DNA of 64,000 nt from Candidatus Azambacteria bacterium (GTDB lineage Bacteria > Patescibacteriota > Minisyncoccia > GWC2-36-17 > WO2-46-25): assembly GCA_016200965.1 (NCBI GenBank), contig JACQDT010000021.1, positions 86-64,085 of the forward strand. The letters are read 5' to 3'. Positions 69 through 42,505 of the stretch are shown piece by piece (positions within the stretch are counted from its first letter, which is position 1; each line of letters begins with the position of its first letter). The notes beneath the pieces are model-generated. The model had not been told where the DNA came from. It saw nothing but the letters and a program-made list of their open reading frames with translations, and searched no databases. The position numbers and the translations under genes were made by a program.

Positions 69-1040
69 ATGTACGATGTACTTGTGGTGGGAAGCGGCAT
101 CGCGTCCTTTTCAGCGGCGATGTTCGCGGCCAAAAAAAAGGTTACGGTGCAGGTGATTGCCGATGCAACCGGCGGTCAGGCGGCGCGGCAATGGGACATG
201 TACAGTTATCCCGGGTATTTGGGCAAAGACGGCGACCCGCGAACCAAGAGAGCGGAGCAGTCGTCATATGACGGCGCACAATTGGTGCAGAACATACGAA
301 AACAAGCCGAAGAGCTTGGCGTGGCTGTTGCGGAGGCAGAAGGCGGCATTCAAAAAATTTCTTTTCGGCAGGAGCATAATCACGAGATTTTTATATTGGA
401 AGACGCTGGGGGGAATGTGTATGAAGGAAATACGGTTATCATCGCGTCGGGGAAAAAACCGAGAAAGCTTGGTGTGCCGGGAGAAGACGAATTCATCGGA
501 AAAGGGGTTTCGTACGGAATGGAGGAAAGCGCTCAGGCATTTGAGGGAAAGTCGGTAGCCGTGGTGGGCGCGGGGAATGCTGGCCTTGACGTCGCGCTCG
601 CGCTTTCAAAATACGCCAAGAAGCTCTCTATCGTGGAAGTAGGAGATCGCGCAGGAGGCGACAAGTCAACGCAGGAAAAACTCGCGCAGAGTAAAAACGT
701 TGTATATATATTGAACGCGGCGGTGCAGAAAATTATCGGCAACGAGTGGGTTGGCGGCGTAGAATATATAAGCAAAACAACAGGAGAAACGAATCAGCTG
801 GAAGTGGATCAGGTATTCGTGACCACCGGAATGAATCCTAATTCTGATTTTCTCCGGGGATTTTGCGAGGTCAATCAGAGCGGCGAAGTGGTCATTAATC
901 CCCGCACGAATGCCACGAGCCATGTGGGAGTGTTCGCGGCGGGCGATGTAACCGATATTCCTGAAAAAGAGGCGATTATCGCGGCGGGCGAAGGCGCAAA
1001 AGCAGCCCTGCAATGCGTGAAGTGGCTTGTGGATAGGTAA
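69..1040 (+). CDS. Thioredoxin-reductase-like FAD/NAD(P) flavoprotein lacking the CxxC redox motif; carries an in-frame family-A repeat
   Basis: N-terminal GxGxxS FAD Rossmann and second GAGNAG NAD(P) Rossmann; colinear with the downstream TrxB, but the CxxC position reads YGMEESAQ; 14-aa insert DPRTKRAEQSSYDG relative to the paralog. Confidence 0.8.
   Translation: MYDVLVVGSGIASFSAAMFAAKKKVTVQVIADATGGQAARQWDMYSYPGYLGKDGDPRTKRAEQSSYDGAQLVQNIRKQAEELGVAVAEAEGGIQKISFRQEHNHEIFILEDAGGNVYEGNTVIIASGKKPRKLGVPGEDEFIGKGVSYGMEESAQAFEGKSVAVVGAGNAGLDVALALSKYAKKLSIVEVGDRAGGDKSTQEKLAQSKNVVYILNAAVQKIIGNEWVGGVEYISKTTGETNQLEVDQVFVTTGMNPNSDFLRGFCEVNQSGEVVINPRTNATSHVGVFAAGDVTDIPEKEAIIAAGEGAKAALQCVKWLVDR
234..275 (+). 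repeat. Family-A 42-nt repeat unit, in frame in the TrxR-like gene
   Basis: acccgcgaaccaagagagcggagcagtcgtcatatgacgg matches the units at 40473-40555, 42388-42471 and 14688-14712/14778-14798. Confidence 0.85.
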
Positions 1041-1062
1041 TTGGTGTATAATAAATTTATCT

Positions 1063-3985: not shown

Positions 3986-4735
3986 ATGTCCGAAATAATC
4001 CCTGCAATCATCGCGAAAGACAAAGAAGAATTGCAGCGCAAGCTCTCCTTGGTGGAGGGCCTTGTTTCGTGGGCGCAGATCGACGTGACCGACGGCGTAT
4101 TCACGCCGGCAACGACGTGGCCTTACGTCGACGGCGTAATTTCCAATTTCCAATTTCCAATTTCCAAACTTAATTTGGAAGTTCATCTTATGGTAAAAAA
4201 TCCTGAACATACGATTGCCAACTGGCTTGCTTCGCCCGTGAAACGCATTTTGCTTCATTACGAATCAACCGCGCCGGAGCGCATAGCGGAGTTAATCGGA
4301 AAAATTACCGCATCAGGCAAAGAAGCGGGGCTCGTTTTGAAATTAGAAACTCCTCTCTCTGTTCTTGACGATCTGTTTCACGCTTCACGCTCCCTGTTTG
4401 TCCAAGAGCGAAGCGATTGGCAACAAACAGCAGTCCAGCGAGGCCACAGGCAGAGTCGTGGCTTCACGCTTCACGTTGTACAACTCATGGGTATCGCCGA
4501 AATCGGCTACTACGGGCATGGATTTGAGCCGTACGCGCTTGACCGCATCAAGGCGTTGCGGGCAAAATATCCGGATGTTACAATAGAAGTAGATGGCGGA
4601 GTGAATCTAGAAAATGCTTCGGTGATTGCGCGGGCGGGAGCGGATAATCTTATTTCAGGAAGCGCGATTTTCAAAACTGACGACGTGAAGGGGGCGATTG
4701 ATGAGTTTAAATCTATCCTACGTTCTACTCCCTAA
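3986..4735 (+). CDS. rpe: Ribulose-phosphate 3-epimerase with an in-frame repeat-element insertion
   Basis: N-terminal IDVTDG...HLMV and C-terminal EVDGGVN...ISGSAIF Rpe motifs; ~32 extra aa (FHASRSLFVQERSDWQQTAVQRGHRQSRGFTLH) where homologs are colinear. Confidence 0.85.
   Translation: MSEIIPAIIAKDKEELQRKLSLVEGLVSWAQIDVTDGVFTPATTWPYVDGVISNFQFPISKLNLEVHLMVKNPEHTIANWLASPVKRILLHYESTAPERIAELIGKITASGKEAGLVLKLETPLSVLDDLFHASRSLFVQERSDWQQTAVQRGHRQSRGFTLHVVQLMGIAEIGYYGHGFEPYALDRIKALRAKYPDVTIEVDGGVNLENASVIARAGADNLISGSAIFKTDDVKGAIDEFKSILRSTP
4138..4165 (+). repeat. Heptanucleotide tandem repeat (AATTTCC)x4 inside the rpe coding sequence
   Basis: Four perfect 7-nt units read directly, encoding ISNFQFPISK; followed by the palindrome ttccaaacttaatttggaa. 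Confidence 0.9.
4377..4475 (+). repeat. Family-B repeat element (quasi-palindromic core ~4389-4463) flanked by direct repeats ttcacgcttcacg; 99 nt total, in frame in rpe
   Basis: Core ctccctgtttgtccaagagcgaagcgattggcaacaaacagcagtccagcgaggcc..gagtcgtggct recurs reverse-complemented at 14713-14777; ctgtttgtccaa/ttggcaacaaacag forms an imperfect hairpin. Confidence 0.85.
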
Positions 4736-14798: not shown

Positions 14799-14845
14799 AA
14801 TCAGTCTAAGTAGGGTTTGGTCGAATTATTAATTCTATTACAACT

Positions 14846-25479: not shown

Positions 25480-25484
25480 GAATA

Positions 25485-27453: not shown

Positions 27454-27468
27454 AAAAAAAACAGCGCC

Positions 27469-27810: not shown

Positions 27811-27870
27811 TGCCGTTCATTCTATCATCGTTGCGCTTTACTGTCAACATTGTATATACTGAAAAACATG

Positions 27871-28016
27871 CCCAGTAATACAACCTCGACTGGGCACGCC
27901 GTTCGATGAAACGTTTCATCCGCAATGGTTATTCGCACCACAGACGAACCAACGCAGGTCATGTTTATCTAACGGCGCACCCTGACGTTTCATTAAGTCG
28001 AGGTTGATATACTGGG
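27871..28016 (+). promoter_or_regulatory. Structured leader upstream of tmk: 20-nt long-range inverted repeat with alternative local pairings
   Basis: cccagtaatacaacctcgac (27871-27890) vs gtcgaggttgatatactggg (27997-28016); local hairpin cccagt/actggg; palindrome gatgaaacgtttcatc. Confidence 0.45.
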
Positions 28017-28643: not shown

Positions 28644-28648
28644 CAGCC

Positions 28649-29227: not shown

Positions 29228-29998
29228 ATTTTTAAAGAGATAGGCAACAGTCAGGGGGCCGACGCCACCCGGAACTGGCGTCACTATTTTTGCCTGTCTT
29301 GAAACGCGGGCGACATCAACGTCGCCTTTTATTTTTCCCTTGAAAAATCCCGCGCCCGCGTCAATGACGATAGCTCCTTTTTTCACTTTTTTGATAAGTC
29401 CCGGTTTGCCCACGGCGGAAATCACCGCATCGGCTCGCGCAGTCAACGCGGAAATATTTTTGGTCGTTTTGTCGGCAACCGCAACGTTTGTAAATCCCTT
29501 CCTCAATAAAAAGGTATGGAGCGGTTTTCCGATAAGGCGGCCGTGCCCGACGACAAGAATGGGCGTGTTCCTTTTGATTCTTCCGGCCTTGCCCAGCATA
29601 TGCCAAATCGCCTGCACGGATGGGGAAACGAAAGGCGAATCGCCGCGCAGATTATCCACGTCTTTTTCGGGCGCAATCGCCGAAAGTATTTTTTGGGTAT
29701 TGAATTTCGCAGGGAGAGGAAGCTGGACGATGATGCCGTTTACCGATTTATTTTTATTCAATTTTTTAATGAGTAGGATCACGCGCGTTTCTGACGCGCT
29801 CGCAGGAAGCTGATGCACCGCAAAATTGCATCTTACCGCGCGCGCGGCAAAACCTTTCCGCTTTACATAGTTCAATGAGGCGCGGTTGTTCCCTGCAAGC
29901 ACGACGGCAAGCGTCGGCTTTTGCCGCATCCGTACCGTATACTTCACAATGGCACGCTCAACTATTCGCGCAAGCGGTTTTCCGTATAAAAGCAACAT
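29204..29998 (-). CDS. folD: Bifunctional 5,10-methylene-THF dehydrogenase/cyclohydrolase
   Basis: YVKRK, GIIVQLPLP and PVPGGVGPLTVA motifs. Confidence 0.9.
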   Translation of the reverse strand: MLLLYGKPLARIVERAIVKYTVRMRQKPTLAVVLAGNNRASLNYVKRKGFAARAVRCNFAVHQLPASASETRVILLIKKLNKNKSVNGIIVQLPLPAKFNTQKILSAIAPEKDVDNLRGDSPFVSPSVQAIWHMLGKAGRIKRNTPILVVGHGRLIGKPLHTFLLRKGFTNVAVADKTTKNISALTARADAVISAVGKPGLIKKVKKGAIVIDAGAGFFKGKIKGDVDVARVSRQAKIVTPVPGGVGPLTVAYLFKNLLRAFLK

Positions 29999-30037
29999 AG
30001 CGATAGTGTAGCAGAGTTATTTAAAACAGCGCAAACG

Positions 30038-30075
30038 AAAAGACCTCCCAAGAGATTCCCTTAGGAGGTCTTTTT
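30038..30075. terminator. Bidirectional hairpin terminator
   Basis: aaagacctcc...ggaggtcttt stem with T-runs on both strands. Confidence 0.5.
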
Positions 30076-30084
30076 ACTATTAAT

Positions 30085-30576
30085 TTAAGTTTCTTGAGAA
30101 GCCACCTTCACGACGGCAAATTTGAAAGAGGATCTCAGACATTCTTTTGGCGCATAGAAGGTGAGAACCCAATCCCATTGAGGAACCGAGGTGGCGACAT
30201 GGCAACCCTTATGATTGTCGCCAAGAGCAACCACCTGTTGCAGTAGGGAAAGTTCGCTGTAGTCCTCGACCTTTTCATCACGAAGTTTCTTGAACACCTT
30301 CTTAAAGAGCTGTTCGTGCAAATCAGCAAGCTCAAAACCTGTTGCGAAACGCCAGTGATTTTTGTCGCACCAATCTTGTAGCACCGGAAGAGTTACCTCT
30401 TCTTCCTCATCGCAGATCAACAACCCGATGGTAAGTTTTTCGTGTCTTCCGTGGCTTGGAAGAAGCTCCACCTTATCTCTCGTGAGACCTATCTTTTCAA
30501 GATCTCCGCCAACGGGAGAAAATCTGATTGGTTCTTGCGAAGATTCAATTTTAAATGTTCGCTCGATTTGCATCAT
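30085..30576 (-). CDS. Hypothetical protein (163 aa)
   Basis: ORF with no recognised family. Confidence 0.5.
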   Translation of the reverse strand: MMQIERTFKIESSQEPIRFSPVGGDLEKIGLTRDKVELLPSHGRHEKLTIGLLICDEEEEVTLPVLQDWCDKNHWRFATGFELADLHEQLFKKVFKKLRDEKVEDYSELSLLQQVVALGDNHKGCHVATSVPQWDWVLTFYAPKECLRSSFKFAVVKVASQET

Positions 30577-30650
30577 ATCCCTCCCTTTTTCTATAGGTTG
30601 AAGAACATGAAATCAAGCGTATCACATAAATATAATCCTGTCAATAGCCC

Positions 30651-32267
30651 TTATTTTTCTTCCAACTCGCGTTCTTTCTGCCGCTGTTTTGCTTCAGAGT
30701 CGGCGCGCGCCCATTGGTAGTCGCCGTAGTCCGTGAATTTGAGCATTTCTTTCGCCCAGGGGTAGCGCTGGAGCGTCTGGCGCGCCATTTCCTGGCATAC
30801 TCTGCGATAGGTGGGATGGCCCTGCGGGGTGGTGCGCAGTTCGAACATATGCTGGGCCTCGCGGAGGTTCATGCCCATCGTCCAGCGCATCTTATGGCCC
30901 ATGAGCACGGTGTATTGCGCCACATGCCGTCCGCACGCGCTTTTTACTTTTTTGTACAGCGCTTCCATTTTTTCCCGTATGGCGTCCGCTTTTTCCTGAA
31001 AGCCCGCTTTTCTGATATCGTCGTTATTTTCAAATCCGAGATAGGGATGCAACAGCTGGCGCTGTTGCGTGAGCATCCGGTGGCGCTGGAGGTCGCGGTA
31101 AATCCCAAAGTCGCCGACGATGTCAAAGGTGAGGGGATACCCCGCTTCGAGCGCGCGGTCGGGCCTGTCGCGGCGAGTTTTGCGGTTGCTTACGTAGGTG
31201 TTCAAAATGCGTTCTTTCGCCGCCGCGGGAAGCTTCGCGACTATTTCATGCAATTGCGAAAGGGGGTGTCTGCCGTACGGGTACAGCATCTGAGCGAGCG
31301 TGGACGTATAAAAATCCGCCTGACTGTCAAAAAGCGCGACCGGTTTTTCTGAAGCGGGCTTTATGTCTTTCAATAGTTCGTCGGCGTGTCTTTGCATCTC
31401 CGTCCGCGCTTTCACGAGAAATTCATTTTGCTTTGCGCGTTTCACGAACGTCGGGATCACTTGGTTGAGCGCGCTATGCGCTTTTGCGGCGATATCGCCC
31501 ATTTCAGAGAGTAGGTGCGTGTACAAATGCGACAGCAGATATTGATAAAATCTCCCGTTGCCGAACAGGCCGACATTAGTGAGTGTCGCGGCGGGCAAGA
31601 AAATGCGTATCGTATCGCACGTTTTAGTGCGGATATCGGATTTATACGTGCGGTCAAACGCCTTGAGGTCTTTTTCGTCTTTCAGGTCTGCGCGCTTTTG
31701 TTTTGTTCCTTTCCCGATGACGTCATATTCGGCTTCTTCCATCGGCTTTTGTTTCTGATAAAACTCCTGCATCGGCTCCACCAGCGACGCATATGTTTCA
31801 AACAGTTCGTTCATCACGCGCTCGTATTCGTCTTTCACGGCGCTTTGAGTAACTTCTTTCGGCCGCAAATACCGCCAATTGCCTTCTTCATTTTTATTAT
31901 CGTACACAACATAGCGGGTGGACTGCTCAATGGGGCTTCCGCCGATGCGCCGGTCTTCCACTTCTTTGGTCGCAAGGTTGGAAATCTGCTCCATACTCAC
32001 ATGCGCGCCCTCAAGCTCGCCGACGGAGTCGTCGCCGTAGGCGATCAAGATGCGCTCAATCACTTCCGCCGCTTTCACCGCGTCAAGCACGCCGTCTTTG
32101 ATGAACTCTTTCAGGAATGTTTCCAAAAAACTGCCCTGCGCCCGCGAATAGCGCGCGTATGCCGGCCCGACGATTCCCGTGAGCCCTTTGACAGCAAACA
32201 CATTGGACTCGGGGTGAGTCACATACTGTTTGAGCACGGCCAATTCTTCTTGTGTGAAGCGTGACAT
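30651..32267 (-). CDS. ThyX-like (FAD-dependent thymidylate synthase family), unusually long tandem-domain form
   Basis: N half carries ..RRIGGSPIEQSTRY.. and C half ..QRHRMLTQQRQLL.. (halves of the ThyX RHRx7S..RY signature); sits in the tmk/dcd/folD/glyA cluster. Confidence 0.5.
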   Translation of the reverse strand: MSRFTQEELAVLKQYVTHPESNVFAVKGLTGIVGPAYARYSRAQGSFLETFLKEFIKDGVLDAVKAAEVIERILIAYGDDSVGELEGAHVSMEQISNLATKEVEDRRIGGSPIEQSTRYVVYDNKNEEGNWRYLRPKEVTQSAVKDEYERVMNELFETYASLVEPMQEFYQKQKPMEEAEYDVIGKGTKQKRADLKDEKDLKAFDRTYKSDIRTKTCDTIRIFLPAATLTNVGLFGNGRFYQYLLSHLYTHLLSEMGDIAAKAHSALNQVIPTFVKRAKQNEFLVKARTEMQRHADELLKDIKPASEKPVALFDSQADFYTSTLAQMLYPYGRHPLSQLHEIVAKLPAAAKERILNTYVSNRKTRRDRPDRALEAGYPLTFDIVGDFGIYRDLQRHRMLTQQRQLLHPYLGFENNDDIRKAGFQEKADAIREKMEALYKKVKSACGRHVAQYTVLMGHKMRWTMGMNLREAQHMFELRTTPQGHPTYRRVCQEMARQTLQRYPWAKEMLKFTDYGDYQWARADSEAKQRQKERELEEK

Positions 32268-32299
32268 ATGAATATGGTATCGGGATTTTTAAAAAAGAA

Positions 32300-32367
32300 C
32301 AAGCACCCAAATGATATTGAGTGCTTGCCTTTTTACTTATTTAATTCTTCGGAAGTCGGACTTCCGA
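32300..32367. terminator. Two hairpins downstream of the 32385-32633 gene; the first with T-runs on both strands
   Basis: caagcac..gtgcttg + cctttttac; perfect palindrome ttcggaagtc g gacttccgaa. Confidence 0.5.
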
Positions 32368-32384
32368 AATCTAAAGTTTCTTGC

Positions 32385-32633
32385 TTAACGCACGCTTTTG
32401 ATATGTGAGGCGAACATCTTAATTTCCGGTGTGAGTTTGCCAATTACAGCAGATGAATGTTGACATTCTGAGATATTGCAGGAATTCTGACGTTGAGATA
32501 TCCATTGTTTGAGAGATTTAATCGCCTCTTTCTTGGTTTGTTTCTCGGTTTTTGCTAACTCAAGGAAAGATGCTGCGCAATCATGTCCGCTTCCACTTGA
32601 TGCGTGCTGCAGGGTCGCATACATTTTTTTCAT
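32385..32633 (-). CDS. Hypothetical small Cys-containing protein (82 aa)
   Basis: ORF with nearby terminators; no family recognised. Confidence 0.45.
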   Translation of the reverse strand: MKKMYATLQHASSGSGHDCAASFLELAKTEKQTKKEAIKSLKQWISQRQNSCNISECQHSSAVIGKLTPEIKMFASHIKSVR

Positions 32634-32709
32634 TATTCCCTCCTTTTGTAAAAGACCTCCCTAATTTCTCTGTAGGAATAAGATATAATATTTTTCCAGA
32701 TTAGTCAAT

Positions 32710-33945
32710 TCAAAAAGCTCTCTTTCGTAATAGCTCGTTTACTGAACTCCGTGTTTTCTCTTTCTGTCCCTCCGTTGGATTTTTCAACAAATCCGCAATC
32801 AGTTTGCCGATGGTTTTCATTTCGGGTTCTTTCATGCCACGAGCGGTGAGGGCGGGGGTGCCGAGGCGGATGCCGGATGGGTCGGCGGGTTTGCGAGTGT
32901 CAAAGGGAATCATGTTGAAATTGGTGTAAATACCACACTCGGCAAGCGCATCGGCACCTTGTTTGCCCGAAATGCCGAGGCCTGTGCAATCAATGATCAT
33001 CAAATGCGTGTCGGTGCCGCCCGATACCAGGCGCAGGCCTTTTGCCATTAGCGCGTTCGCGAGCGCTTTCGCGTTTTTAGCGACCTGCTGTTGATACTTT
33101 TTATACTCATCCGTCATCGCCTCTTTGAAACATACCGCTTTTGCGGCGATGATATGTTCCAGTGGCCCGCCTTGCATGCCGGGGAACACCGCTTTGTCTA
33201 TTTTCGCCGCGTGTTCGGCTTTGGAAAGGATGATGGCGCTTCTGGGGCCGCGGAGCGTTTTGGTGGTTGTGGTCATGACGACGTCGTGCGTCGGGACGGG
33301 GCTTTCGTGCACGCCGCCGACCACGAGCCCCGCGATGTGGGACATATCCGCCATCGCGTACGCGCCGACTTTTTTGGCAATGTCGGCAAAGCGCGAAAAG
33401 GGAACTGCGCGGGGATACGCGGTGAAACCCGAAAGAATAAGTTTCGGCTTCGTTTCCATCGCGAGCTTTTCCACTTTGTCCATATCAAGCATTTCAGTAT
33501 CTTTCTCAACGCCGTAGTGGACAAATTTAAACAGCTTGCCCGACAGCGAAACAGGGTGCCCGTGCGTGAGATGCCCGCCGTGCGCGAGGTTCATTGCCAT
33601 GATCGTATCGCCCGGTTCAAGCAGGGCAAAATAGCACGCGAGGTTCGCCTGCGATCCCGCGTGCGGCTGGACATTGGCGTGTTCCGCGCCGAACAACTGC
33701 TTCGCGCGGTCTATTGCAAGCTGTTCTATCTTATCTATGTATGCACTGCCGGTGTAGTACCGCTTGCCCGGATATCCTTCCGCGTATTTGTTGGTCAGCA
33801 CCGTTCCCGCCGCTTCAAGCACGGCAGGGGAGGCGAGGTTTTCAGACGCGATCATCAAAAGCCCTTCGCTTTGGCGCTTTTCTTCCTGCCGGATAAACCC
33901 TTCGAGTTCCGGGTCAAATTGTGGAAGATGGCGCCTCATATGCAT
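32710..33945 (-). CDS. glyA: Serine hydroxymethyltransferase
   Basis: [22 protein letters not shown] and PLP-binding Lys region; 411 aa. Confidence 0.93.
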
Positions 33946-33974
33946 TTCATCATATCACGAAAAAACTTAAAAAC

Positions 33975-34012
33975 GAATTGTACATATTCACGCTATAGCG
34001 GGAGAATGTACA
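33975..34012 (+). promoter_or_regulatory. Second copy of the attgtaca-N-tgtacaat palindrome (between the uvrC stop and the glyA start)
   Basis: See 20862-20900. Confidence 0.5.
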
Positions 34013-34034
34013 ATCTTTCAACTTTCAGAAACCG

Positions 34035-35312
34035 TCATAGTATCCTGCCGCGTAATTTTCTATGGTAGGTTATTGCGAATCGGTGCGCTTCATCGCGGAG
34101 GCGCTGGACGAAAAAGAGAAACGGCTTGCCCAATGTTTCGGCGCGTACTGGCCTTGATTTTTTCGCAAAGTATATCTCTTCGTTCTCTTTCGCAAGCGCC
34201 ATAACGAGCTGGGTTTTAGGAAGTACGCGCATTACCGCGCCTAACTGTCCTTTGCCGCCGTCGAGCAGAATAACATCGGGCGCCGGCCATTCGGCATGCC
34301 TCAAGCGCCGTGAAATGACTTCGGCCATCATTTTGGGGTCGTTGGGCATGTCTCCCGAGTATTGTATCCTAAACTTGCGGTACTGGCTTTTCGCGGGAAA
34401 ACCGTTTTCGCATACCACCATGGAGCCGACCGCAAATTTCCCGGAGATATTGGAAATATCATATCCTTCCACGCGGTGTATGTCTCGCGCGGCGCCGAGT
34501 AATTTCTGCAACGCTTCCTGCACAAGCGGCCACTCAGACGAGTTTGTTTTTTCATGCCTCCATACCCGATCAAGCGATGGGCCGTGCGCGAACACTTTTT
34601 TAAGATACTCTATCCGATGTTTATACTCATTCGCTTTTGTGAATTCCTCTTTGCGCGCCGATTTTTTCATCGCTTTTTCAAGCCGCCCGAGAATGCCTTT
34701 TCGCGCGCCGCTTAAGATATGTAAAATGGCGCTGATGTTCTTTTCAGTGCGCACGTACATTTTAGGATCCGCGCATGCGCCTGTGCATCTTCCGAGATGA
34801 TAATCAAAACACGCGCGTTTTAACGATAAAGGCCGCGCGGCGCAATACGGATAGGCCGCGCGCAACATGCGCACGGTATAGCGCAGGGCGAACGCGTCGG
34901 TGAACGGCCCCACACAAAGCGAGTAGCGAGTAGGGATTTTCGTTGGTTGATGAGTGATAAAAATGCGCGGATACGGCTTTTCATTCGTAGCGCACGCATA
35001 GGCATAATTTTTATCATCCCTGAAGATCACGTTAAAGCGGGGATGATGTTTTTTTATAAGCTTCGCTTCTTCTATAAGCGCATCTATTTCCGAGCCGCAC
35101 ACTTTCCATCCAATAGCGCGTATCGCCGTGCGCAACGCTTCCGTTTTCGGCGACTCGCCTTTTATTTTGGTGAAATACTGCCGTACCCGCGCGCGCAGAA
35201 CCAGCGCTTTGCCGATGTAGATGATCGTATCGGCTTTATCTTTGAAAAAATAAACACCCGGCTTTTGGGGAACTGCTTTCAGTTTTGCTTTCAACCTTTC
35301 CATATAAAGCAA
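34035..35312 (-). CDS. uvrC: UvrC-like excinuclease (GIY-YIG plus endonuclease domain; short, apparently lacking the C-terminal HhH region)
   Basis: GVYFFKDKADTIIYIGKA GIY-YIG; later EGYDISNISG...DGGKGQL UvrC endonuclease motifs; 425 aa vs ~600 typical. Confidence 0.75.
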   Translation of the reverse strand: MLYMERLKAKLKAVPQKPGVYFFKDKADTIIYIGKALVLRARVRQYFTKIKGESPKTEALRTAIRAIGWKVCGSEIDALIEEAKLIKKHHPRFNVIFRDDKNYAYACATNEKPYPRIFITHQPTKIPTRYSLCVGPFTDAFALRYTVRMLRAAYPYCAARPLSLKRACFDYHLGRCTGACADPKMYVRTEKNISAILHILSGARKGILGRLEKAMKKSARKEEFTKANEYKHRIEYLKKVFAHGPSLDRVWRHEKTNSSEWPLVQEALQKLLGAARDIHRVEGYDISNISGKFAVGSMVVCENGFPAKSQYRKFRIQYSGDMPNDPKMMAEVISRRLRHAEWPAPDVILLDGGKGQLGAVMRVLPKTQLVMALAKENEEIYFAKKSRPVRAETLGKPFLFFVQRLRDEAHRFAITYHRKLRGRIL

Positions 35313-35333
35313 GAAAAGTTATAATGGGAGGAG

Positions 35334-36662
35334 ATGGAATCACTCATCAAAATAGAAAATCTTTCCGTGGTTTATGACAAGGGGAAAGCGTCGGAGACCA
35401 AGGCGCTTTCCGACATCAACGTGGAGATATACCCGCAGGAGTATATCATTTTTTTCGGGCCTTCGGGTTGCGGCAAATCAACCCTTTTGTACGTCATTGC
35501 GGCGATGGAAAGAGCGACCACCGGAAAAGTTGTCATCCACGGCAATGATATCAGCAAAATGAAAGAGAGGGAAATAACTTCATATCGGCAAAATACCATT
35601 GGGATGGTCTTTCAGCAATATAACTTAATCCCATCGCTGAACGTGCTGGAAAACGTCGCTATTCCGCAGACATTTAAAAAGATCGGGAAAAAAGAACGGA
35701 GCCCCAAAGCCCAGGCCCTGCTGGACCGGTTCGGCATCGGCGCGTTCTCCGAGCGGCTTCCCACGGAACTTTCCGGCGGGCAACAGCAAAGGGTATCCAT
35801 CGCGCGGTCGCTCGTGAACGACACGCCGCTTATTTTAGCGGATGAGCCGACGGGCAATCTGGATTCCAAGTCATCGCAGAACGTGCTTGACATCTTGCAG
35901 GAACTCAACCAAAAAGACAAAAAAACGATTATTTTGGTCACGCACGATCCCAACCAGCTCCAATACGCGCACCGCGTGTTTCACATGAAGGACGGGAAAG
36001 TAGTCCGGCAGACGATCAATACCCAGCTCCCCCAGCAGATGGACGCGGCGACAAGGGAAAAACTGACGCGGTCGCTCTCCGGACTTTCTTCCGCGATTAT
36101 TGACATCCTTTCGGTATATCCCGAGCTGACGGAATCGCGCCTGAAGGCGAAAGCGCTGGTGAACTATCTTATGTCGGAACTGGACACGCGCCAGCTTGAC
36201 CGGCTGGAGCGGCTGGTGGAAGACCGTATCTTGGGCAAGATCAGCAAAAACGACTTCCACGCGGCGCTTGACGATCCTTTGGAAAAAGGAGGCGCAGGGC
36301 TCAACTACCAGTCGGCGAAAAAAATATGGGAATCCGTGGAATCCCTGCTTTCCGAAACGGACGTCATTCAAAAAAACATTGATGCAACACGCAAGGATCA
36401 CGCCGTAAACGATGCGATAGTTCAAGAAATTTATTCCCAGCTTTCCGACGTACTGACCGCTCAACCGTCAGAGGAGCAGGCGAAACGATGTAAGGAACTT
36501 ATCGCAAAACGGATATCGGGAACGATAGATAAGACGGGATTTTTCGCCGGGCTTGACCTTGCGTTCAGTCACGGCGGGGTAGGGTTAAGAAGAGAGGTGG
36601 CAGAGGATATCACGCGCAGGACGGAAATGTTACTTATCAAATTCAAGGACTTCACGGAATGA
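35334..36662 (+). CDS. ABC transporter ATP-binding protein (MacB/LolD-type) with a ~200-aa C-terminal extension
   Basis: Walker A GPSGCGKST, signature LSGGQQQRV, Walker B ILADEPT. Confidence 0.85.
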   Translation: MESLIKIENLSVVYDKGKASETKALSDINVEIYPQEYIIFFGPSGCGKSTLLYVIAAMERATTGKVVIHGNDISKMKEREITSYRQNTIGMVFQQYNLIPSLNVLENVAIPQTFKKIGKKERSPKAQALLDRFGIGAFSERLPTELSGGQQQRVSIARSLVNDTPLILADEPTGNLDSKSSQNVLDILQELNQKDKKTIILVTHDPNQLQYAHRVFHMKDGKVVRQTINTQLPQQMDAATREKLTRSLSGLSSAIIDILSVYPELTESRLKAKALVNYLMSELDTRQLDRLERLVEDRILGKISKNDFHAALDDPLEKGGAGLNYQSAKKIWESVESLLSETDVIQKNIDATRKDHAVNDAIVQEIYSQLSDVLTAQPSEEQAKRCKELIAKRISGTIDKTGFFAGLDLAFSHGGVGLRREVAEDITRRTEMLLIKFKDFTE

Positions 36663-37858
36663 AATTACCCGACCTGATCATACTTTCAACCCGGATGTTT
36701 TACACGCGCCGCATGCGGACGTTTTTGACTATTTTGGGCATCGGCATCGGCATCGGCGCGATTTTGTTTTTGGTATCGTTGGGATACGGACTCCAGCGGG
36801 CGCTTCTTTCGCAGATCACAAGCTCGGCCGCGCTGTTGTCTTTAGATGTCGTGCAGGGAGAAAAAACCGTCGCGCCGCTTGACGGGCGTTTGGTGGAAAA
36901 AATAAAAGCGTTCCCTGAAGTGACCGAGGTCGTGCCCATGGTGAGTTCCCGCGGCCAGATATCGTTTGAAGACACGACCGCGGACGTAGTAGTAAGCGCT
37001 ACCTCGGCTCTTTTCCTAAACCTTTCGAATATCAAAGCGTCGGTAGGTAGTGAATTTTTGGACAATCGGAAGGAAGTGATCATCTCGGACGCAATCAGCA
37101 AATCGATAGACCTCAAGGAGGGCACGGCGATCATCGGCGCGCAGATCACGCTCTCCATGCTTGCGGCTACCATTAATGAAGAAGGCATTGAACAGCTTAA
37201 TCTGATCACCCAACCGGAAAAATTTTCCATCGTGGGCATCATTGAAGGGGACTCGTCACCGACGATATTCGTTCCTATCTCGCAACTCACGGGCGTCAAC
37301 TTTGATTCGTACTCGCAAATAAAAGTCAAGGTGGGCAGCACGGACCAGCTGGAACCGGTGAGAAACAGAATCATTGAAATGGGATTCGTGGTGGCCGCGC
37401 TTTCGGACATCGTGGATCAGGCCAACAAGGTGTTCAACATCCTTCAGATCATCCTTGCCATATTCGGCGTGGTGGCGCTCGTGGTGTCCGCCATCGGCAT
37501 GTTTAACACCATGACCATCGCGCTCATGGAACGGACGCACGAAGTCGGCATTATGAAATCGCTTGGGGCGGCGCGGAGCGATATTATGTCTATGTTCGTC
37601 ACGGAAGCGGTCATCATGGGATTTCTGGGAGGAATCGTCGGGCTTATAGTCGGATTTTTTGGGGGCCAGCTCTTTAACTTTCTTTTGAACATTCTCGCAA
37701 AAAATCTCGGCGGGAAAACCGTTGATATTTTCTACACGCCGCTGTGGTTTGCGGTGACCATTGTGATTTTCTCAACGGTAGTGGGTTTCGTGACCGGCGT
37801 GTGGCCCGCGCGCCGCGCCGCCCGCTTGAATCCTTTGGAAGCGGTAAAATATAAGTAA
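36659..37858 (+). CDS. ABC transporter permease, FtsX/MacB family
   Basis: N-terminal TM, large extracytoplasmic domain, three C-terminal TMs; overlaps the ATPase gene stop. Confidence 0.8.
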   Translation: MKLPDLIILSTRMFYTRRMRTFLTILGIGIGIGAILFLVSLGYGLQRALLSQITSSAALLSLDVVQGEKTVAPLDGRLVEKIKAFPEVTEVVPMVSSRGQISFEDTTADVVVSATSALFLNLSNIKASVGSEFLDNRKEVIISDAISKSIDLKEGTAIIGAQITLSMLAATINEEGIEQLNLITQPEKFSIVGIIEGDSSPTIFVPISQLTGVNFDSYSQIKVKVGSTDQLEPVRNRIIEMGFVVAALSDIVDQANKVFNILQIILAIFGVVALVVSAIGMFNTMTIALMERTHEVGIMKSLGAARSDIMSMFVTEAVIMGFLGGIVGLIVGFFGGQLFNFLLNILAKNLGGKTVDIFYTPLWFAVTIVIFSTVVGFVTGVWPARRAARLNPLEAVKYK

Positions 37859-37898
37859 ATGATTGACATCCCGCTCCTTTACCCTTATACTAAGGACT

Positions 37899-39281
37899 AT
37901 GAAATTTCTCGTGAAAGTCCTGAAATTTATCTTTGTGCCGGAAGGGGAGCGGGCGAAATCGCTCTATATTCTTCTGTTTATTTTCATCGTCGCCGTGGCG
38001 GCCTTTGGGTTTGATTTTCCAGAAAAATGGAACGCGTACGGCGGAACATGGCATATCCCGAAATTCCGCCAGCTTGATTTCAAGCTCGGGCTTGATCTGA
38101 AAGGAGGAGCGCACTTGGTGTACGTTGCCGATCTTTCCAATGTGAAGCCGGCCGATTACGGTGACGCGATGGCGGGCTTGCGGGACGTCATAGAACGGCG
38201 CGTCAACTCGTTTGGTATCGGCGAACCCAACGTGCAGACCGCGCAGGTGGGAGGAGAGCATCGCCTTAATGTGGAACTCGCAGGTATTAAGGATGTTAAT
38301 CAAGCGATACAAATGATCGGCCAGACACCGTATCTTGAGTTCAAGGAAGGCAGACCGGAAGAAGAGACAAAAAAGATCCAAGATGCGCAGAAGAAAGGAG
38401 AGCGCGTATACGAAGACCCGTATTTCATAGCGACCGAACTCAACGGGAAATATCTCAAGCGCTCCGAGCTAACGTTTGACCAAAATACCTATAAACCGGT
38501 AGTGAACCTCGTTTTTGATTCGGAAGGCGCGGCGCTGTTTGCGAAAATCACCGGCCGCAACGTCGGCAAGACGGTTGCCATTTATCTTGATGGCGGGCCT
38601 ATTTCAGTCCCGCGGGTCAACGAAGCGATCACGGGCGGATCGGCGATCATCACCGGCGATTTCAGCGTTCAGGAAGCAAAACAGCTCGTACAACGCCTGA
38701 ACTCCGGCGCGCTGCCTGTTCCGGTAAAACTTATTTCACAGCAAACCGTAGAGGCGTCGCTGGGCGAGGAAGCGCTGAAAAAAAGTTTTCAAACCGGTAT
38801 ATGGGCGCTTGGCGCGGTGGCCGTATTTATGGTGCTATGGTATAAAATCCCGGGCATGTTGGCTATTATCGCGCTTCTCGGATACGCCCTTTTCACGCTT
38901 GCCGCGTTTAAACTGCTTGGCGTCACGCTCACGCTTGCCGGCATAGTAGGATTCATTCTTTCCATCGGTATGGCCGTGGACGCGAATATTCTGATTTTCG
39001 CCCGCATGCGGGAAGAATTCAGGGCGGGAAAAAGATCAGACCTTGCGGTGCATGACGCCTTTCTTCGCGCATGGCCGTCCATACGGGATTCCAACATATC
39101 CACACTGCTGACCTGCTTTGTGCTTTATTTTTTCACCGCGAGTTTGATAAAGGGTTTTGCCCTCACGCTTGCCATCGGCGTGCTTATTTCAATGTTTTCG
39201 GCGATATTTGTCACGCGCGCTCTGTTGCGAGCTGTTATTTTTGAAAAGCTAAGTAAATTGAAATTTTTATGGTACCGATAA
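37899..39281 (+). CDS. secD: Protein-export membrane protein SecD
   Basis: LGLDLKGG motif, periplasmic domain, 6-TM C-terminus. Confidence 0.88.
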   Translation: MKFLVKVLKFIFVPEGERAKSLYILLFIFIVAVAAFGFDFPEKWNAYGGTWHIPKFRQLDFKLGLDLKGGAHLVYVADLSNVKPADYGDAMAGLRDVIERRVNSFGIGEPNVQTAQVGGEHRLNVELAGIKDVNQAIQMIGQTPYLEFKEGRPEEETKKIQDAQKKGERVYEDPYFIATELNGKYLKRSELTFDQNTYKPVVNLVFDSEGAALFAKITGRNVGKTVAIYLDGGPISVPRVNEAITGGSAIITGDFSVQEAKQLVQRLNSGALPVPVKLISQQTVEASLGEEALKKSFQTGIWALGAVAVFMVLWYKIPGMLAIIALLGYALFTLAAFKLLGVTLTLAGIVGFILSIGMAVDANILIFARMREEFRAGKRSDLAVHDAFLRAWPSIRDSNISTLLTCFVLYFFTASLIKGFALTLAIGVLISMFSAIFVTRALLRAVIFEKLSKLKFLWYR

Positions 39282-40186
39282 CAACGTACAGAAAAGTATA
39301 CTATCTGTTCTCCGGGACGCTGATAGCGCTTTCTCTTGTCGCGCTGTCGGTCTGGGGGCTTAAACTGGGAATTGACTTTAAAGGCGGGTCGCTTCTTTTG
39401 GGGAAATTCTCCGAAACAGCGCCGCTCCAGCCGGAGCTCGTCGGATCAATGCAAAAACTTGCGCTGGGGGAAGTCATTGCGCAACCGGCGGGAGAGAAAA
39501 GCGTCATTTTGCGCTTTAAAGAAGTGGACGAGAAAACCCATCAGGAAGTTCTTTCCGCGCTTGACGGGCTTGCGAAAACACACGGCGAGAAGAACACCTT
39601 CGCGCAAAAAAGCTTTGAATCCATCGGCCCTTCCATTGGCAAAGAATTGCGCACGAAATCCGTCACCGCAATCGCACTTGTGCTCGTGCTCATCATCGGC
39701 TACATCGCGCTTGCGTTCCGGAAGGTCTCTTACCCGCTTTCGTCATGGAAGTACGGGGTCGCGGCGCTTATCGCGCTTTTTCACGATGTGATCATTCCGT
39801 TGGGTCTTTTCGCGATGCTGGGGCATTTCAGAAACGTTGAAATTTCAAGCGGCTTCATTGCCGCGATTTTGACGGTGTTAGGATATTCCGTGCACGATTC
39901 CATCATTGTCTTTGACCGCGTGCGCGAAAACCTCGCAAAACATCAGGGAAAGACATTTGAAGAAACGGTGAACATCTCGGTCAACCAGACGTTCATCAGA
40001 TCCCTTAATACTTCTTTAACGGTGATCCTCGTGCTGTTGGCCATTTACTTCCTCGGGGGCGAATCCATAAAATACATCGCGCTCATGCTGTTGGTCGGCG
40101 TCGGGGTAGGGACGTATTCTTCCATTTTCATCGGCTCAACCGCCCTCGTGACCTGGTACGACTATATGAAACGGCGGGGAAATTGA
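39269..40186 (+). CDS. secF: Protein-export membrane protein SecF
   Basis: GIDFKGGS motif, 6 TM, follows secD. Confidence 0.88.
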   Translation: MVPITTYRKVYYLFSGTLIALSLVALSVWGLKLGIDFKGGSLLLGKFSETAPLQPELVGSMQKLALGEVIAQPAGEKSVILRFKEVDEKTHQEVLSALDGLAKTHGEKNTFAQKSFESIGPSIGKELRTKSVTAIALVLVLIIGYIALAFRKVSYPLSSWKYGVAALIALFHDVIIPLGLFAMLGHFRNVEISSGFIAAILTVLGYSVHDSIIVFDRVRENLAKHQGKTFEETVNISVNQTFIRSLNTSLTVILVLLAIYFLGGESIKYIALMLLVGVGVGTYSSIFIGSTALVTWYDYMKRRGN

Positions 40187-42505
40187 TTATTCCGGATGCA
40201 CTTTCGCCGCGCGTTCGCGCAGATAGCGTTTCAACAGAGGATGACCCTCCAATGAAGGGTCTTCTTTCATAATGCGCAGAGCTTCATCGCGCGTCTCCTT
40301 GACCAGCGCGGCGTCCGCCAGCGATGCCATTGCAAGATCAGGAAGACCCCATTGGCGCGTTCCCAGGAAATCACCCGGGCCGCGCAGAGCCAAGTCCTTT
40401 TCCGCAAGCGCAAATCCACTGTGCGATTCAAGCAGGGCTTTCAAGCGGCGATTTTCCTCCGGTGCCGCACTGCCGTCATACGACGACTGCTCCGCTCTCT
40501 GCGTTCGCGGGTTGTCGTCATACGACGACTGCTCCGCTCTCTGCGTTCGCGGGTTGCCTGAAAAAAGCAGGCAGTATGACTGGTGCTCGCCTCTGCCGAC
40601 CCTGCCGCGAAACTGATGCAGTTGCGCAAGTCCGAACAGTTCCGCGCCTTCTACCATCATGACGGTCGCATTGGGCACATCAATACCCACTTCCACCACC
40701 GACGTAGACACGAGAATATCCGCGCCACCGTTTTTGAACTTTTTCATCGTTTCTTCTTTCTCCTTCGCTTTCATTTTTCCGTGAAGCATTACGACCCGCA
40801 GATCCGGAAACATCTCTGCCGATAGTTTTCTATACTCCTCTTTCACTGTTTTCACTTCCGCCGAAAGAAATTGCCGCACAGTAGCAGGGGACAACTCACT
40901 TCCAACTTCAATCCGAGGACAAATAACAAATATCTGTCTGCCTTCTTTTGCTTGCTTTCTGATAAATGCGTACGCCGCCTGACGATGTGCGGGAAGCACG
41001 ATCTTGGTAATGACCTTTTTTCTTTCTTTGGGCATCTCATCAAGCAGTGAAATATCAAGGTCTCCGTATAGCGTGAGGGCAAGCGTGCGCGGAATCGGGG
41101 TGGCAGTCATACTTAACAAATGGGGAGCCGCACCAACGCGGCTTGTTTTTACAAGTGCCGCGCGTTGTTTGACGCCGAAGCGATGCTGTTCGTCCAGCAC
41201 CACAAGCCCTAATTTGCGAAATACGCAATTTTTTGAGATAAGCGCGTGCGTGCCCACGACCACCGGCAACGCGCCTTGGGCAATCATCTGTATAACATCC
41301 TGTTTTTTCATTTTCCTGTCCGCGCGCAATTCTCCGTCGTGGACGATCGCCTGAGCGCCCGTCAGCAATCCCACGTCACATCCGAACAATGCAAAGAACT
41401 GTGCAAATACTGAAAAATGCTGAAGCGCGAGCACCTCGGTGGGCGCCATCAGGGCGATCTGCCATCCGTTTCGAGCGGCATTTAAAGCGGCAATCGCGGC
41501 GACCACCGTTTTTCCCGAGCCGACTTCGCCTTGCAACAGACGGTTCATCGGGAACGGTTTTTGCATATCTTTTAATATTTCCCATGCCGCGCGGCGCTGG
41601 GCATCCGTCAGCCGGAAGGGGAGTAGGGACACGAATCGTTTCACCGCTTCAAGGTCAAGCGCAAGAGGGGGCGCGGATTCTTTTTTGACGGCGTTCTTCG
41701 CTTCCAACGCCAAAAGGTGGAGGAAAAATAATTCTTCAAACGCAAGGCGTTTTCTCGCGCGCGCGCTCTCTTCTTTTGTGCGCGGAAAATGGATTTCCCT
41801 CAATGCCGCCCCCAACGCAGGAAGCCGATGGCGGCGCAGAGTGTCTTGCGGAAGCGGATCAGTGATATGTGAAATGAACGGCAGGGCGTTTTTCATCAGA
41901 TATCTCAACCAACGGGAAGTAATGCCTGCCGTTTCGCGATACACCGGAACCAGGCGGCCGGTGTGCGTCGCGACACCGTCTTTCGCGACGAATTCATACG
42001 CTGGATTTTGAAGTACCAGCGATGTTTTGTCAGCTGTTATTTTCCCCGAAAGATTCACCATCCTGCCGACACGCAAATTTTTTGTGAGGAACGGCTGGTT
42101 GAACCACACCGCGCGCATGCTTCCGGTCCCGTCGGAAATCACCGCTTCGGTAAGATGCATGCGTCTTTTCCATGTGTGCGCGCTTTCCACCCGCTCCAAT
42201 TTTCCGGAGATGGTCGCGACGGCGCCCGCTTTCACGTCCGCTATGGACACTTTTTTGGAAAAATCATCGTAGCGGAACGGCACGTGCATGAGCAGATCGT
42301 ACACCGTACGGATGCCGAGCGCGGCGAGCGGCTTGATGATTGTGGCACTTGCTCCTTTTAATTTTTCAATAGGGGAGAGAAGCGATGTGTCGTCATACGA
42401 CGACTGCTCCGCTCTCGGGGTTCGCGGGTTGCCGTCATACGACGACTGCTCCGCTCTCTGGGTTCGCGGGTTGCCGTCTTTCAGATGAAGAGATGATTTT
42501 AACAT
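40187..42505 (-). CDS. recG: ATP-dependent DNA helicase RecG carrying tandem family-A repeat dimers near both termini
   Basis: GEVGSGKT Walker A, DEQHRFG motif II and helicase C domain; inserts GNPRTQRAEQSSYDGNPRTPRAEQSSYDD (N-term) and GNPRTQRAEQSSYDDNPRTQRAEQSSYDG (C-term, just before the conserved ..LAEKDLALRGPGD); start taken at MLKSS. Confidence 0.88.
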   Translation of the reverse strand: MLKSSLHLKDGNPRTQRAEQSSYDGNPRTPRAEQSSYDDTSLLSPIEKLKGASATIIKPLAALGIRTVYDLLMHVPFRYDDFSKKVSIADVKAGAVATISGKLERVESAHTWKRRMHLTEAVISDGTGSMRAVWFNQPFLTKNLRVGRMVNLSGKITADKTSLVLQNPAYEFVAKDGVATHTGRLVPVYRETAGITSRWLRYLMKNALPFISHITDPLPQDTLRRHRLPALGAALREIHFPRTKEESARARKRLAFEELFFLHLLALEAKNAVKKESAPPLALDLEAVKRFVSLLPFRLTDAQRRAAWEILKDMQKPFPMNRLLQGEVGSGKTVVAAIAALNAARNGWQIALMAPTEVLALQHFSVFAQFFALFGCDVGLLTGAQAIVHDGELRADRKMKKQDVIQMIAQGALPVVVGTHALISKNCVFRKLGLVVLDEQHRFGVKQRAALVKTSRVGAAPHLLSMTATPIPRTLALTLYGDLDISLLDEMPKERKKVITKIVLPAHRQAAYAFIRKQAKEGRQIFVICPRIEVGSELSPATVRQFLSAEVKTVKEEYRKLSAEMFPDLRVVMLHGKMKAKEKEETMKKFKNGGADILVSTSVVEVGIDVPNATVMMVEGAELFGLAQLHQFRGRVGRGEHQSYCLLFSGNPRTQRAEQSSYDDNPRTQRAEQSSYDGSAAPEENRRLKALLESHSGFALAEKDLALRGPGDFLGTRQWGLPDLAMASLADAALVKETRDEALRIMKEDPSLEGHPLLKRYLRERAAKVHPE
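40473..40555 (-). repeat. Family-A repeat, tandem dimer (2 x 42 nt), in frame in the recG 3' region
   Basis: Two units ccgtcatacgacgactgctccgctctctgcgttcgcgggtt read directly. Confidence 0.9.
42388..42471 (-). repeat. Family-A repeat, tandem dimer (2 x 42 nt), in frame in the recG 5' region
   Basis: Two units gtcgtcatacgacgactgctccgctctc(g/t)gggttcgcgggtt read directly. Confidence 0.9.

Follow-up and report, generated by a model that had tools for sequence, protein, structure and literature searches.

A 42-nt repeat unit, probably a mobile insertion element, in frame within housekeeping genes of Patescibacteria

The DNA analyzed here, below referred to as the window, is a stretch of 64,000 nt from the genome of a Candidatus Azambacteria bacterium (Patescibacteria, or candidate phyla radiation, CPR; contig JACQDT010000021.1). 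It contains copies of a 42-nt unit of 14 codons, GGCAACCCGCGAACNNNGAGAGCGGAGCAGTCGTCGTATGAC, for which the working definition GGCAACCCGCGAAC-NNN-GAGAGCGGAGCAGTCGTCGTATGAC (42 nt) was used. The unit occupies four sites in three genes (Table 1), being present as a single copy in a gene encoding a TrxR/AhpF-like protein, as two head-to-tail dimers in recG, and as a copy at the 3' end of rplJ that is split by another small element, termed element B. An initial annotation, made from the sequence alone, had placed the unit correctly in the window, with coordinates off by 3 nt in phase. It had, however, counted four genes, and assigned a common frame to three of them, whereas the GNPRT... frame is used only in the TrxR-like gene and recG (three sites); the rplJ copy is 3'-terminal and lies in another frame.

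Four window matches to the 41-mer of the initial annotation are found at no more than three mismatches, compared to 0.00 expected from 100 dinucleotide-preserving shuffles. A looser limit adds the copy in the TrxR/AhpF-like gene (four mismatches) and the two halves of the rplJ copy, and Tandem Repeats Finder reports a period of 42 with 2.0 copies at both recG sites. The TrxR/AhpF-like translation contains GDPRTKRAEQSSYDG; the unit is directly followed by GGC (273-275), so that the encoded peptide is G-DPRTKRAEQSSYD-G. The RecG translation contains two dimers of GNPRTQRAEQSSYD, as GNPRTQRAEQSSYDGNPRTPRAEQSSYDD and GNPRTQRAEQSSYDDNPRTQRAEQSSYDG. The rplJ copy is read as QPANAESGA..., that is, in the frame that normally holds the TGA of the unit, and starts past the last L10 residue aligning to solved L10 structures (168 of 186), within an 18-residue tail. 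At all four sites the sense strand of the unit is the G-rich strand.

Table 1. Coordinates of the unit, element B and the RNA-like element (window, or public contig L-number)
Feature	Sequence	Coordinates	Strand	Context
Single unit, 4 differences from consensus	window	231-272	+	In frame in TrxR/AhpF-like ORF 69-1040
recG C-terminal head-to-tail dimer	window	40475-40558 (units 40517-40558, 40475-40516)	-	ORF 40187-42514 (-)
recG N-terminal head-to-tail dimer	window	42392-42475 (units 42434-42475, 42392-42433)	-	Downstream of conserved start MLKSSLH
rplJ split unit, 5' part (positions 1-28)	window	14685-14712	+	3' end of rplJ ORF 14189-14749
Element B nested in rplJ unit at GGAGC/AG	window	14713-14781	+	69 nt; contains rplJ stop 14747-14749
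rplJ split unit, 3' part (positions 29-42)	window	14782-14795	+	Then GGCAA at 14796-14800
Second element B copy	window	4390-4461	-	72 nt, within ribulose-phosphate 3-epimerase (rpe) ORF 3986-4735
RNA-like element copy	L002	4553-4745		
RNA-like element copy	L017	6095-6282	-	
RNA-like element copy	L022	4740-4905		
RNA-like element copy	L050	6855-7020	-	
RNA-like element copy	L095	9276-9446		
RNA-like element copy	L095	10017-9900	-	
RNA-like element copy	L120	1500-1710		
RNA-like element copy	L003	1271-1130	-	
RNA-like element copy	L071	10125-10445		
RNA-like element copy	L071	11402-11256	-	
ORF, open reading frame; the slash marks the point of insertion.

Comparison with homologues demonstrates that the copies are insertions. 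The alignment of RecG with the Thermotoga maritima protein (1GM5) breaks at chain residue 698, leaving query residues 657-683 over as an exact insertion of 28 amino acids (2 x 14) with aligned sequence on both sides. This C-terminal dimer sits between the strand following helicase motif VI and the next helix. Among 104 Patescibacteria-type RecG homologues (50-68% identity), none has residues in the columns of the C-terminal insert and none carries the repeat peptide at the N terminus; the insert is thus, as had been proposed, lineage-specific and not an ancestral domain. Alignment to the closest orthologues (61-68% identical), one of the checks suggested in the initial annotation, shows that they lack both dimers. 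The nearest ones, P0004 and P0006, keep MLKSSLH/MIKSSVH without the 28 amino acids, and since the start MLKSSLH is conserved in them, the N-terminal dimer lies inside the coding region. Structure prediction agrees with this: in the AlphaFold model of RecG (105-sequence alignment; mean predicted local distance difference test score, pLDDT, 80.8; predicted template modelling score 0.74) both inserts are low-confidence excursions from an otherwise confident structure, with pLDDT below 50 at residues 1-41 and 659-683, the second of these falling between strand 646-651 and helix 683-696.

The TrxR/AhpF-like protein has 14 residues more than AhpF (1FL2) at the position of the unit. This comparison is cleaner than the one with the TrxB paralog, which had been said to lack exactly these 14 residues; the paralogs are 39% identical, so that the latter correspondence is only approximate. 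The unit-bearing paralog has no redox CxxC (GVSYGMEESA), while the adjacent one (1027-1989) retains CSTC; judging by the motif, the former may no longer be a disulfide reductase.

Several of the matches in the collection of species-representative genomes lie at contig ends, as could be the case for an assembly, adaptor or contamination artefact. Against this origin, assemblies that come from unrelated projects and were built with different assemblers carry the unit in frame within conserved genes, and an independent assembly (GCA_016178885.1, contig JACOSM010000047.1), 99.4-99.9% identical to window positions 35341-41570, has the same C-terminal recG dimer. Moreover, no match to the unit is present in phage, plasmid and viral-contig collections, and together with the independent assembly this indicates that the unit is a genuine chromosomal feature of the Patescibacteria genome. 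An ancient protein motif, in turn, would hardly be missing from all 104 RecG homologues and so rare among 1.84 billion representative proteins, of which only seven have a dimer-like match. Both versions can be regarded as effectively refuted. A peptide search of 5.8 billion proteins gave two matches, but a single 14-residue match cannot be significant in a set of either size, so that these protein counts do not gauge prevalence. A partial RecG from Candidatus Azambacteria bacterium at NCBI shows 100% BLASTP identity to the window RecG, with two residue differences in the alignment; the exact-protein look-up found no identical record for the window RecG and TrxR-like proteins. The contig of the independent assembly also lacks window positions 38339-38441 (103 nt) inside secD, where the frame would shift and no gene is called; this is either a true deletion variant or an assembly error.

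Outside the window, the degenerate pattern matches 20 stretches in the species-representative collection, nearly all of them in metagenome-assembled genomes of Patescibacteria (Giovannoni-, Zambryski-, Lipton- and Yonathbacteria, several "Patescibacteria group" bins, and genomes automatically labelled Saccharibacteria), and 107 stretches in metagenome contigs, mostly from Rifle and Hainich groundwater. A profile census of all DNA fetched through these matches counts 176 further full-length units; these fall into 136 unique contexts, and the contigs concerned are all of Patescibacteria type. This corresponds to a dispersed repeat family and not to gene conversion among a few sites, the two outcomes between which the initial annotation had expected such a count to decide. 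Twelve of the 136 contexts belong to one conserved RNA-like element, considered below, and the remaining 124 are dispersed over about 104 sites, comprising 86 single units, 16 dimers and two trimers. In each of these 18 arrays the units follow one another head to tail, at a period of 42.

About 90% of the dispersed units lie within long ORFs of unrelated housekeeping proteins, which also answers the earlier suggestion to compare genic and non-genic copies. The hosts are IleRS, MetRS, ArgRS, SerRS, PheT, SecA, Mfd, RNase J, DnaX, RarA, Fpg, HtrA, MltG, ThiI, Dus, ABC transporters and others, with 38 of 59 copies in the first or last 20% of the host protein. Most units (82 of 124) are in the GNPRTQRAEQSSYD frame (GNPRT..., frame 0) of ORFs of at least 120 codons, and 15 are in the other open sense frame (+1), ATRERRERSSRRMT. 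Only three are in the third frame (+2), and in every one of these TGA is mutated; a directed check for intact TGA gave one candidate ending a 97-codon ORF, where the copy is antisense within a longer ORF. Twelve units are antisense, spread over all three frames, and twelve have no long ORF around. Two public gene calls look like spurious small ORFs, P0001 (63 amino acids; L001 10001-10192), the product of a unit dimer that precedes an rpoD-like gene, and P0002 (68 amino acids; L002 4547-4751), made by the unit inside the RNA-like element.

At single sites, the length difference between related contigs is exactly 42 or 84 nt. In particular, the same site is empty in L028 (...CAGAGGA GGC AGT...), holds one unit in L103 and two in L040; another is empty in L096 (AAT GAC AAC CCA) and occupied by a dimer in L031 and L092; and a third is empty in L107, with one unit in L122. 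Four sites in a small zinc-ribbon gene next to engB are variably filled among four contigs that are about 78-85% identical overall. Units are also nested in other units, at the hypervariable triplet 15-17 (L051, L069, L082). This triplet has 14 variants (Gln replaced by Glu, Lys, Pro, Trp or Arg), but is nearly always identical between tandem copies, which suggests that arrays grow by local duplication or multimer insertion. Mutagenesis of the kind caused by diversity-generating retroelements was considered and rejected, since the variation of the triplet is not adenine-specific and the free adenines at positions 38 and 41 are conserved (110/110 and 106/110).

The net gain is always an exact multiple of 42 nt, in constant phase and without target-site duplication, in arrays of one to three units. 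The constant phase, seen at more than 100 sites, argues for specific insertion. The 3' flanks of non-tandem copies read G (82/82), G (79/82), C (71/82), A (49/82), A (57/82), and the 5' flanks tend to G-A-C (44%, 45% and 51%); hence the target resembles the unit-to-unit junction GAC/GGCAA. When the first bases of each unit were compared with the bases following it in all 136 contexts, position 1 was found to be other than G in 19 left copies and in no right copy, while deviations at positions 3-5 occurred on the right in 25, 33 and 28 cases, and on the left alone in 2, 0 and 0. Position 2 deviates alike on both sides (8 and 9 cases). Concordant left and right variants were seen in two cases only, one of them being the TrxR copy of the window (GGCG on both sides). 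This asymmetry is the signature of a fixed-point join G/GCAA between a periodic or circular donor and the target, and not of a target-site duplication; a fixed 3-nt duplication (GCN) was rejected because of the many discordant left/right pairs.

No terminal inverted repeats are present, as the 5' end GGCAACCCGCG has no similarity to the reverse complement of the 3' end, GTCATACGACG. The predicted minimum free energy of the 42-nt unit is -14.4 kcal/mol (z = -1.19; reverse strand z = -0.10), with stems of only 4 and 6 bp, and the only 6-bp hairpin, GTCGTC-GTAT-GACGGC, is at the 3' end. This hairpin and the identical GGC codons flanking the unit would also fit removal of the 42 nt from mRNA like an intron, or ribosome bypass between the matching codons as in T4 gene 60 or the mitochondrial "byp" elements. 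If that were the case, frame and stop codons would be irrelevant, yet in mid-gene positions the stop-containing frame is used only by the three copies in which TGA is mutated, most copies keep to the open frame 0, and 42 is divisible by three. No intron or ribozyme of Rfam matches the unit. Such removal or bypass is hence barely credible.

Element B is inserted into units at one point. In rplJ it consists of 65 nt plus the repeated GGAGC (69 nt), contains a 14-bp hairpin and supplies the rplJ stop codon. Six further composites with element B at the same GGAGC/AG point were found (L029, L100, L007, L097, L014, L112), the one in L029 having yet another hairpin inside element B; judging by the ORFs, composites are translated in frame within Mfd and Fpg. 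The 3' hairpin is expanded in units of L112, L057 and L071. The copy in rpe is also in frame and adds about 28-29 amino acids, and both Pfam and PDB alignments of the protein split at this place (query 130 to 168 against chain 131 to 141 in 1TQJ). It is flanked by the 13-nt direct repeat TTCACGCTTCACG (4377-4389 and 4463-4475), which consists of two TTCACG(C) units, whereas inside the unit element B is flanked by GGAGC only; the length of its flanking repeats is therefore not constant. The rpe coding sequence also contains a perfect heptamer repeat, AATTTCC x 4.3, at 4138-4167. Thus, these genomes hold a small ecosystem of nested mini-elements with lengths in multiples of three.

Taken together, these data are best explained if the unit is a mobile insertion element translated as a passenger peptide, which we consider probable. 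It would be a non-autonomous and very short (42 nt) element of Parcubacteria-type CPR bacteria, and, its length being a multiple of three, insertion never shifts the host frame. Surviving copies would then cluster in the termini and loops of otherwise normal housekeeping proteins, and element B and other small elements, inserting at a fixed point of the unit, would yield composites that are likewise in frame. Mobilization would presumably occur in trans, by machinery encoded elsewhere. The likeliest candidate is a strand-specific machinery of the IS200/IS605-REP kind, recognizing single strands or hairpins and producing no target-site duplications, with hairpin-promoted template switching as the alternative; within this interpretation, an enzyme-driven single-strand mechanism receives roughly one third of the weight.

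The same data can be approached without any dedicated enzyme, if the copies arise by template switching or ectopic gene conversion from existing ones, the 3' hairpin promoting the switch, short homology (GAC GGCAA) guiding it, and slippage producing the tandems. Such a process would account for targets that resemble the unit-to-unit junction on both sides, for 3' flanks sharing 8-11 nt with the unit start at some sites (L024, L072, L131), for copy numbers shifting among one, two and three at a given site, and for a window without mobility genes; the left/right asymmetry of variants is also expected from a microhomology junction. At the same time, 3-8 nt of homology would hardly suffice, in the absence of a specific catalyst, to give one constant phase at over 100 independent sites. 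Element B is inserted at one fixed point of the unit in at least seven independent loci, and the strong strand bias is left unaccounted for. We therefore regard copying without an enzyme as unlikely.

The frame and strand of the copies were compared with those of available targets. The split between frame 0 and the other open frame, 82:15, differs from 1:1 (p = 2e-12) and from the availability of GGCAA (p = 2e-4), but not from the availability of GACGGC in the window genes, 19:4 (p = 0.69). GGC targets in the window genes are preferentially in-frame codons, and insertion at GGC, which mostly encodes glycine, puts the majority of copies into the GNPRTQRAEQSSYD frame. Target preference and the elimination of the stop-containing frame can thus account for most of the frame bias. 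Genic copies, however, are sense in 100 and antisense in 12 cases, a strand bias not explained by target availability, which predicts about 52-62% sense (p = 8e-11). Frame 0 (grand average of hydropathy, GRAVY, -2.16) combines strong hydrophilicity with a lack of charge, as none of the other five frames does; the others are strongly basic, or have near-neutral hydropathy, including cysteine- or stop-containing readings. Given this unique combination, selection could contribute to the frame and strand bias, a strand-specific mechanism being the alternative for the latter.

At positions free of the retrieval patterns, the third codon positions 33, 36, 39 and 42 are invariant in 107-110 of 110 units, while the first codon positions 34 (T/C 91:18, serine to proline) and 37 (T/C/A 87:20:3, mainly tyrosine to histidine) vary. 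Synonymous sites are thus kept more than replacement sites, which indicates that conservation acts on the DNA and the peptide is a passenger. Conservation at synonymous sites would also suit an RNA- or DNA-level signal, and the extreme similarity of copies across candidate orders and the strong bias to one strand and one frame are what could be expected of a selected functional module, be it such a signal or a peptide tag, for instance a short linear motif for a partner, protease or modifying enzyme. However, the variable positions are replacement ones (Gln to Glu, Lys, Pro or Trp, Ser to Pro, Tyr to His), presence varies among close relatives and the unit is absent from all orthologues, the hosts are functionally unrelated, with termini and loops favored, other-frame, antisense and non-coding copies exist, and a single unit is not predicted to fold more stably than its shuffles. 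A selected module thus appears quite improbable.

The RNA-like element that harbors the unit in 12 unique contexts is about 165-300 nt long, holds the unit at one fixed place, and is common to Giovannoni-, Zambryski-, Lipton- and Yonathbacteria. It starts with GGTGCAGTATTCTTGAATTAGTCCGAAC and ends with GACAATTTCAAGTTTTTCTTTGGCGG, has a -10-like box upstream, a closing stem followed by a U-run, and variable hairpins at four fixed sites; it matches no Rfam family and is absent from the window. No conserved neighboring gene and no reverse transcriptase are found in its neighborhood. Copies without both the unit and the terminator-like end precede small membrane-protein genes as 5' leaders and in many cases converge with a terminated copy. 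From these sequence features, the element could be an undescribed small RNA or riboswitch-like family.

The fixed place of the unit in an element shared by four candidate orders, and the fact that several such genomes have no other match to the pattern, would be consistent with a conserved small RNA gene acting as the master, the unit having been copied, perhaps as a retro-copy, from one of its segments. However, the profile search revealed unit-less copies of the RNA-like element (L095, L120, L003, L071) with a clean empty junction, GAAAATTC/GGAAAGG, and L109 has a unit dimer at the fixed place. The RNA-like element thus behaves as one more host, widely conserved, and the lack of an adjacent reverse transcriptase and of a conserved neighborhood also argues against a master gene, which leaves this origin very improbable. 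A search with Rfam and ARAGORN for the unit as a piece of a conserved non-coding RNA (RNase P, SRP, 6S, tmRNA, retron or guide RNA) gave nothing.

Returning to the unit as a mobile element with a passenger peptide, several points weigh against it. Its mobility is suggested by distribution and polymorphism alone, and translation through it is likewise a prediction from sequence. The 64-kb window contains housekeeping genes throughout and encodes no transposase, recombinase or reverse transcriptase, nor could any such gene be linked to the unit. Lacking terminal inverted repeats and target duplication, and folding no better than shuffles, the unit matches no characterized transposition mechanism, and the left/right asymmetry described above would be produced just as well by a microhomology junction in which GC is always included. 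Target availability does not account for the strand bias, and local GC skew, being confounded with coding-strand composition, could not separate a replication-strand effect from selection. Invariance of unit positions 4-14 and 18-32, which are fixed by the retrieval patterns, reflects ascertainment and is no evidence, and copies might also be nearly identical across candidate orders because the sequence has a function of its own.

A broader version of the same interpretation is possible but doubtful: the unit, element B and the nested mini-elements might constitute an undescribed class of ultra-short, sequence-specific mobile modules of CPR bacteria, 42, 69/72 and 111 nt long, that insert without target-site duplication, recognize targets by similarity to their own junction, and continuously add and remove loops in essential proteins across candidate orders. 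They would be moved by a strand-specific single-strand recombinase unrelated to REP-associated tyrosine transposases (RAYTs) or by an RNA/DNA-guided enzyme.

The closest phenomenon is that of Rickettsia palindromic elements (RPEs), and to our knowledge selfish DNA residing in protein-coding genes on a large scale is well known only from Rickettsia. RPE-1-type elements are palindromic and about 100-150 bp long. As with RPE-1 to RPE-10, the unit is repeatedly inserted in frame into unrelated housekeeping ORFs, encodes a conserved peptide and probably occupies places tolerated by the fold. The initial description of the unit as RPE-like holds for this behavior (in-frame, dispersed, with a tolerated peptide) but not as family membership, since the unit is not palindromic (z = -1.2). 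It also differs in being 42 nt long without a long hairpin, in forming head-to-tail arrays, in its occurrence in Patescibacteria instead of Alphaproteobacteria, and in a readable target and junction, (GAC)G/GCAA. Moreover, about 90% of the units are intragenic, compared to about half of the RPEs (of 44 insertions in R. conorii, ORFs contain nearly half; review PMC10969869). The label "selfish" given to the unit stays interpretative, the core of the initial reading being otherwise supported.

Intragenic repetitive extragenic palindromes (REPs) of the GTAG/CGTC type (RPE-4 and RPE-6 of R. conorii; Opitutus terrae) are 20-40 nt long, often lie in replication and repair genes, and frequently form dimers encoding 20-30 amino acids in linkers, loops or termini, which were argued to be neutral (PMC3733652). 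In REPs, a tetranucleotide tag that stays unpaired is combined with a 5-13 bp stem and a loop of 2-20 nt, which together account for nearly the entire repeat; stems of 8-9 bp and loops of 4-5 nt are typical of CGTC families, and some families have a 3-bp tail. Their dimers are head-to-head or tail-to-tail, head-to-tail being rare (PMC3733652). The unit resembles them in being a short intragenic element that forms dimers, and its bottom strand begins with CGTCATACGACG. However, its CGTC lies inside a 4-6-bp stem, CGTC-ATAC-GACG, no palindrome is formed by the other approximately 26 nt, units are arrayed head to tail throughout, and genes contain about 90% of the copies, while REPs are mainly extragenic. 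No RAYT (Y1 transposase) gene is present in the 64-kb window.

Elements of the IS200/IS605 type insert without target-site duplication beside a short conserved sequence repeated at the element end, have terminal hairpins and show strand bias. The unit shares insertion without duplication, at the (GAC)G/GCAA target, as well as strand bias (100:12), with a gain of exactly 42n. One 6-bp hairpin lies at one end of the unit, and no Y1/HUH transposase is encoded in the 64-kb window. The unit differs from this group, including palindrome-associated transposable elements (PATEs) and REP/RAYT systems, in that bases to the left and right of the junction both contribute to the target, which resembles the junction of the element itself and not a guide-complementary tetranucleotide.

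Elhai and co-workers reportedly described, in Genome Research in 2008, small dispersed repeats (SDRs) of Nostocaceae, tens of nucleotides long, that insert into each other, into larger repeats and into genes. They are said to be mostly intergenic and to have been recognized by filled and empty orthologous sites. The unit likewise nests, enters genes and shows filled and empty sites, but belongs to a different sequence family and phylum; a dominant translated frame is not known to have been described for SDRs. Miniature inverted-repeat transposable elements (ERIC, BOX, QMITE1/2) also extend or interrupt ORFs in frame, and QMITE2 of Coxiella, which gives enhC a C-terminal tail and a stop codon (PMC5896051), is comparable to the tail of rplJ. 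These elements are, however, 100-400 bp long and have terminal inverted repeats and variable direct repeats, whereas the unit has neither terminal repeats nor target-site duplications and is one tenth of their size.

Two other candidates were rejected. An intein or self-splicing intron is excluded by the 14 encoded amino acids and by the lack of an Rfam match at the gathering or a permissive threshold, and a simple tandem repeat produced by slippage only, by four window sites and 136 contexts elsewhere. No paper was found that contains the peptide or the DNA string, or links RPEs with Patescibacteria, and a keyword search for repeat elements gave no paper mentioning Parcubacteria. The unit is thus a structurally distinct variant of the phenomenon of repeats inside genes, in a new phylum and with a readable insertion signature.

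Being smaller than RPEs, with a readable junction and many empty, single and double polymorphisms, the family offers a possible route to the mobilization mechanism, and its hosts are very abundant in public groundwater metagenomes. Some unusual insertions in housekeeping proteins of CPR bacteria may be repeat-derived and not adaptive. The units also provide a natural map of insertion tolerance, as essential enzymes, among them aminoacyl-tRNA synthetases, SecA, RecG, Mfd and DnaX, accept 14-42 extra residues at defined places. In practical terms, they fragment assemblies, create spurious small-ORF calls that pollute protein databases, and could serve as strain markers.

Several other features of the window can be mentioned. 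Cumulative GC skew peaks at about 22000-40000, where gene orientation shifts from mostly plus to mostly minus, a pattern expected around a replication terminus. Another repeated element, of 49 nt with TTGTACA...TGTACAA arms, occurs at 20859-20907 and 33971-34019 (86% identity). The first copy lies just upstream of an EamA-like transporter ORF (20902-22740, plus strand), overlapping the called TTG start by 6 nt, and the second, in the same relative orientation, about 25 nt before glyA (32710-33945, minus strand); by its position and arms this element looks like a shared operator or leader. The ThyX ORF (30651-32267) encodes 538 amino acids, about twice the usual length, with the Thy1 Pfam domain in two stretches, which could reflect an internal duplication or a further insertion. 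Finally, tRNA-Leu (cag) at 25395-25479 overlaps the 5' end of the longest RNase J ORF (23494-25422, GTG start), so the true start of RNase J must be further downstream.

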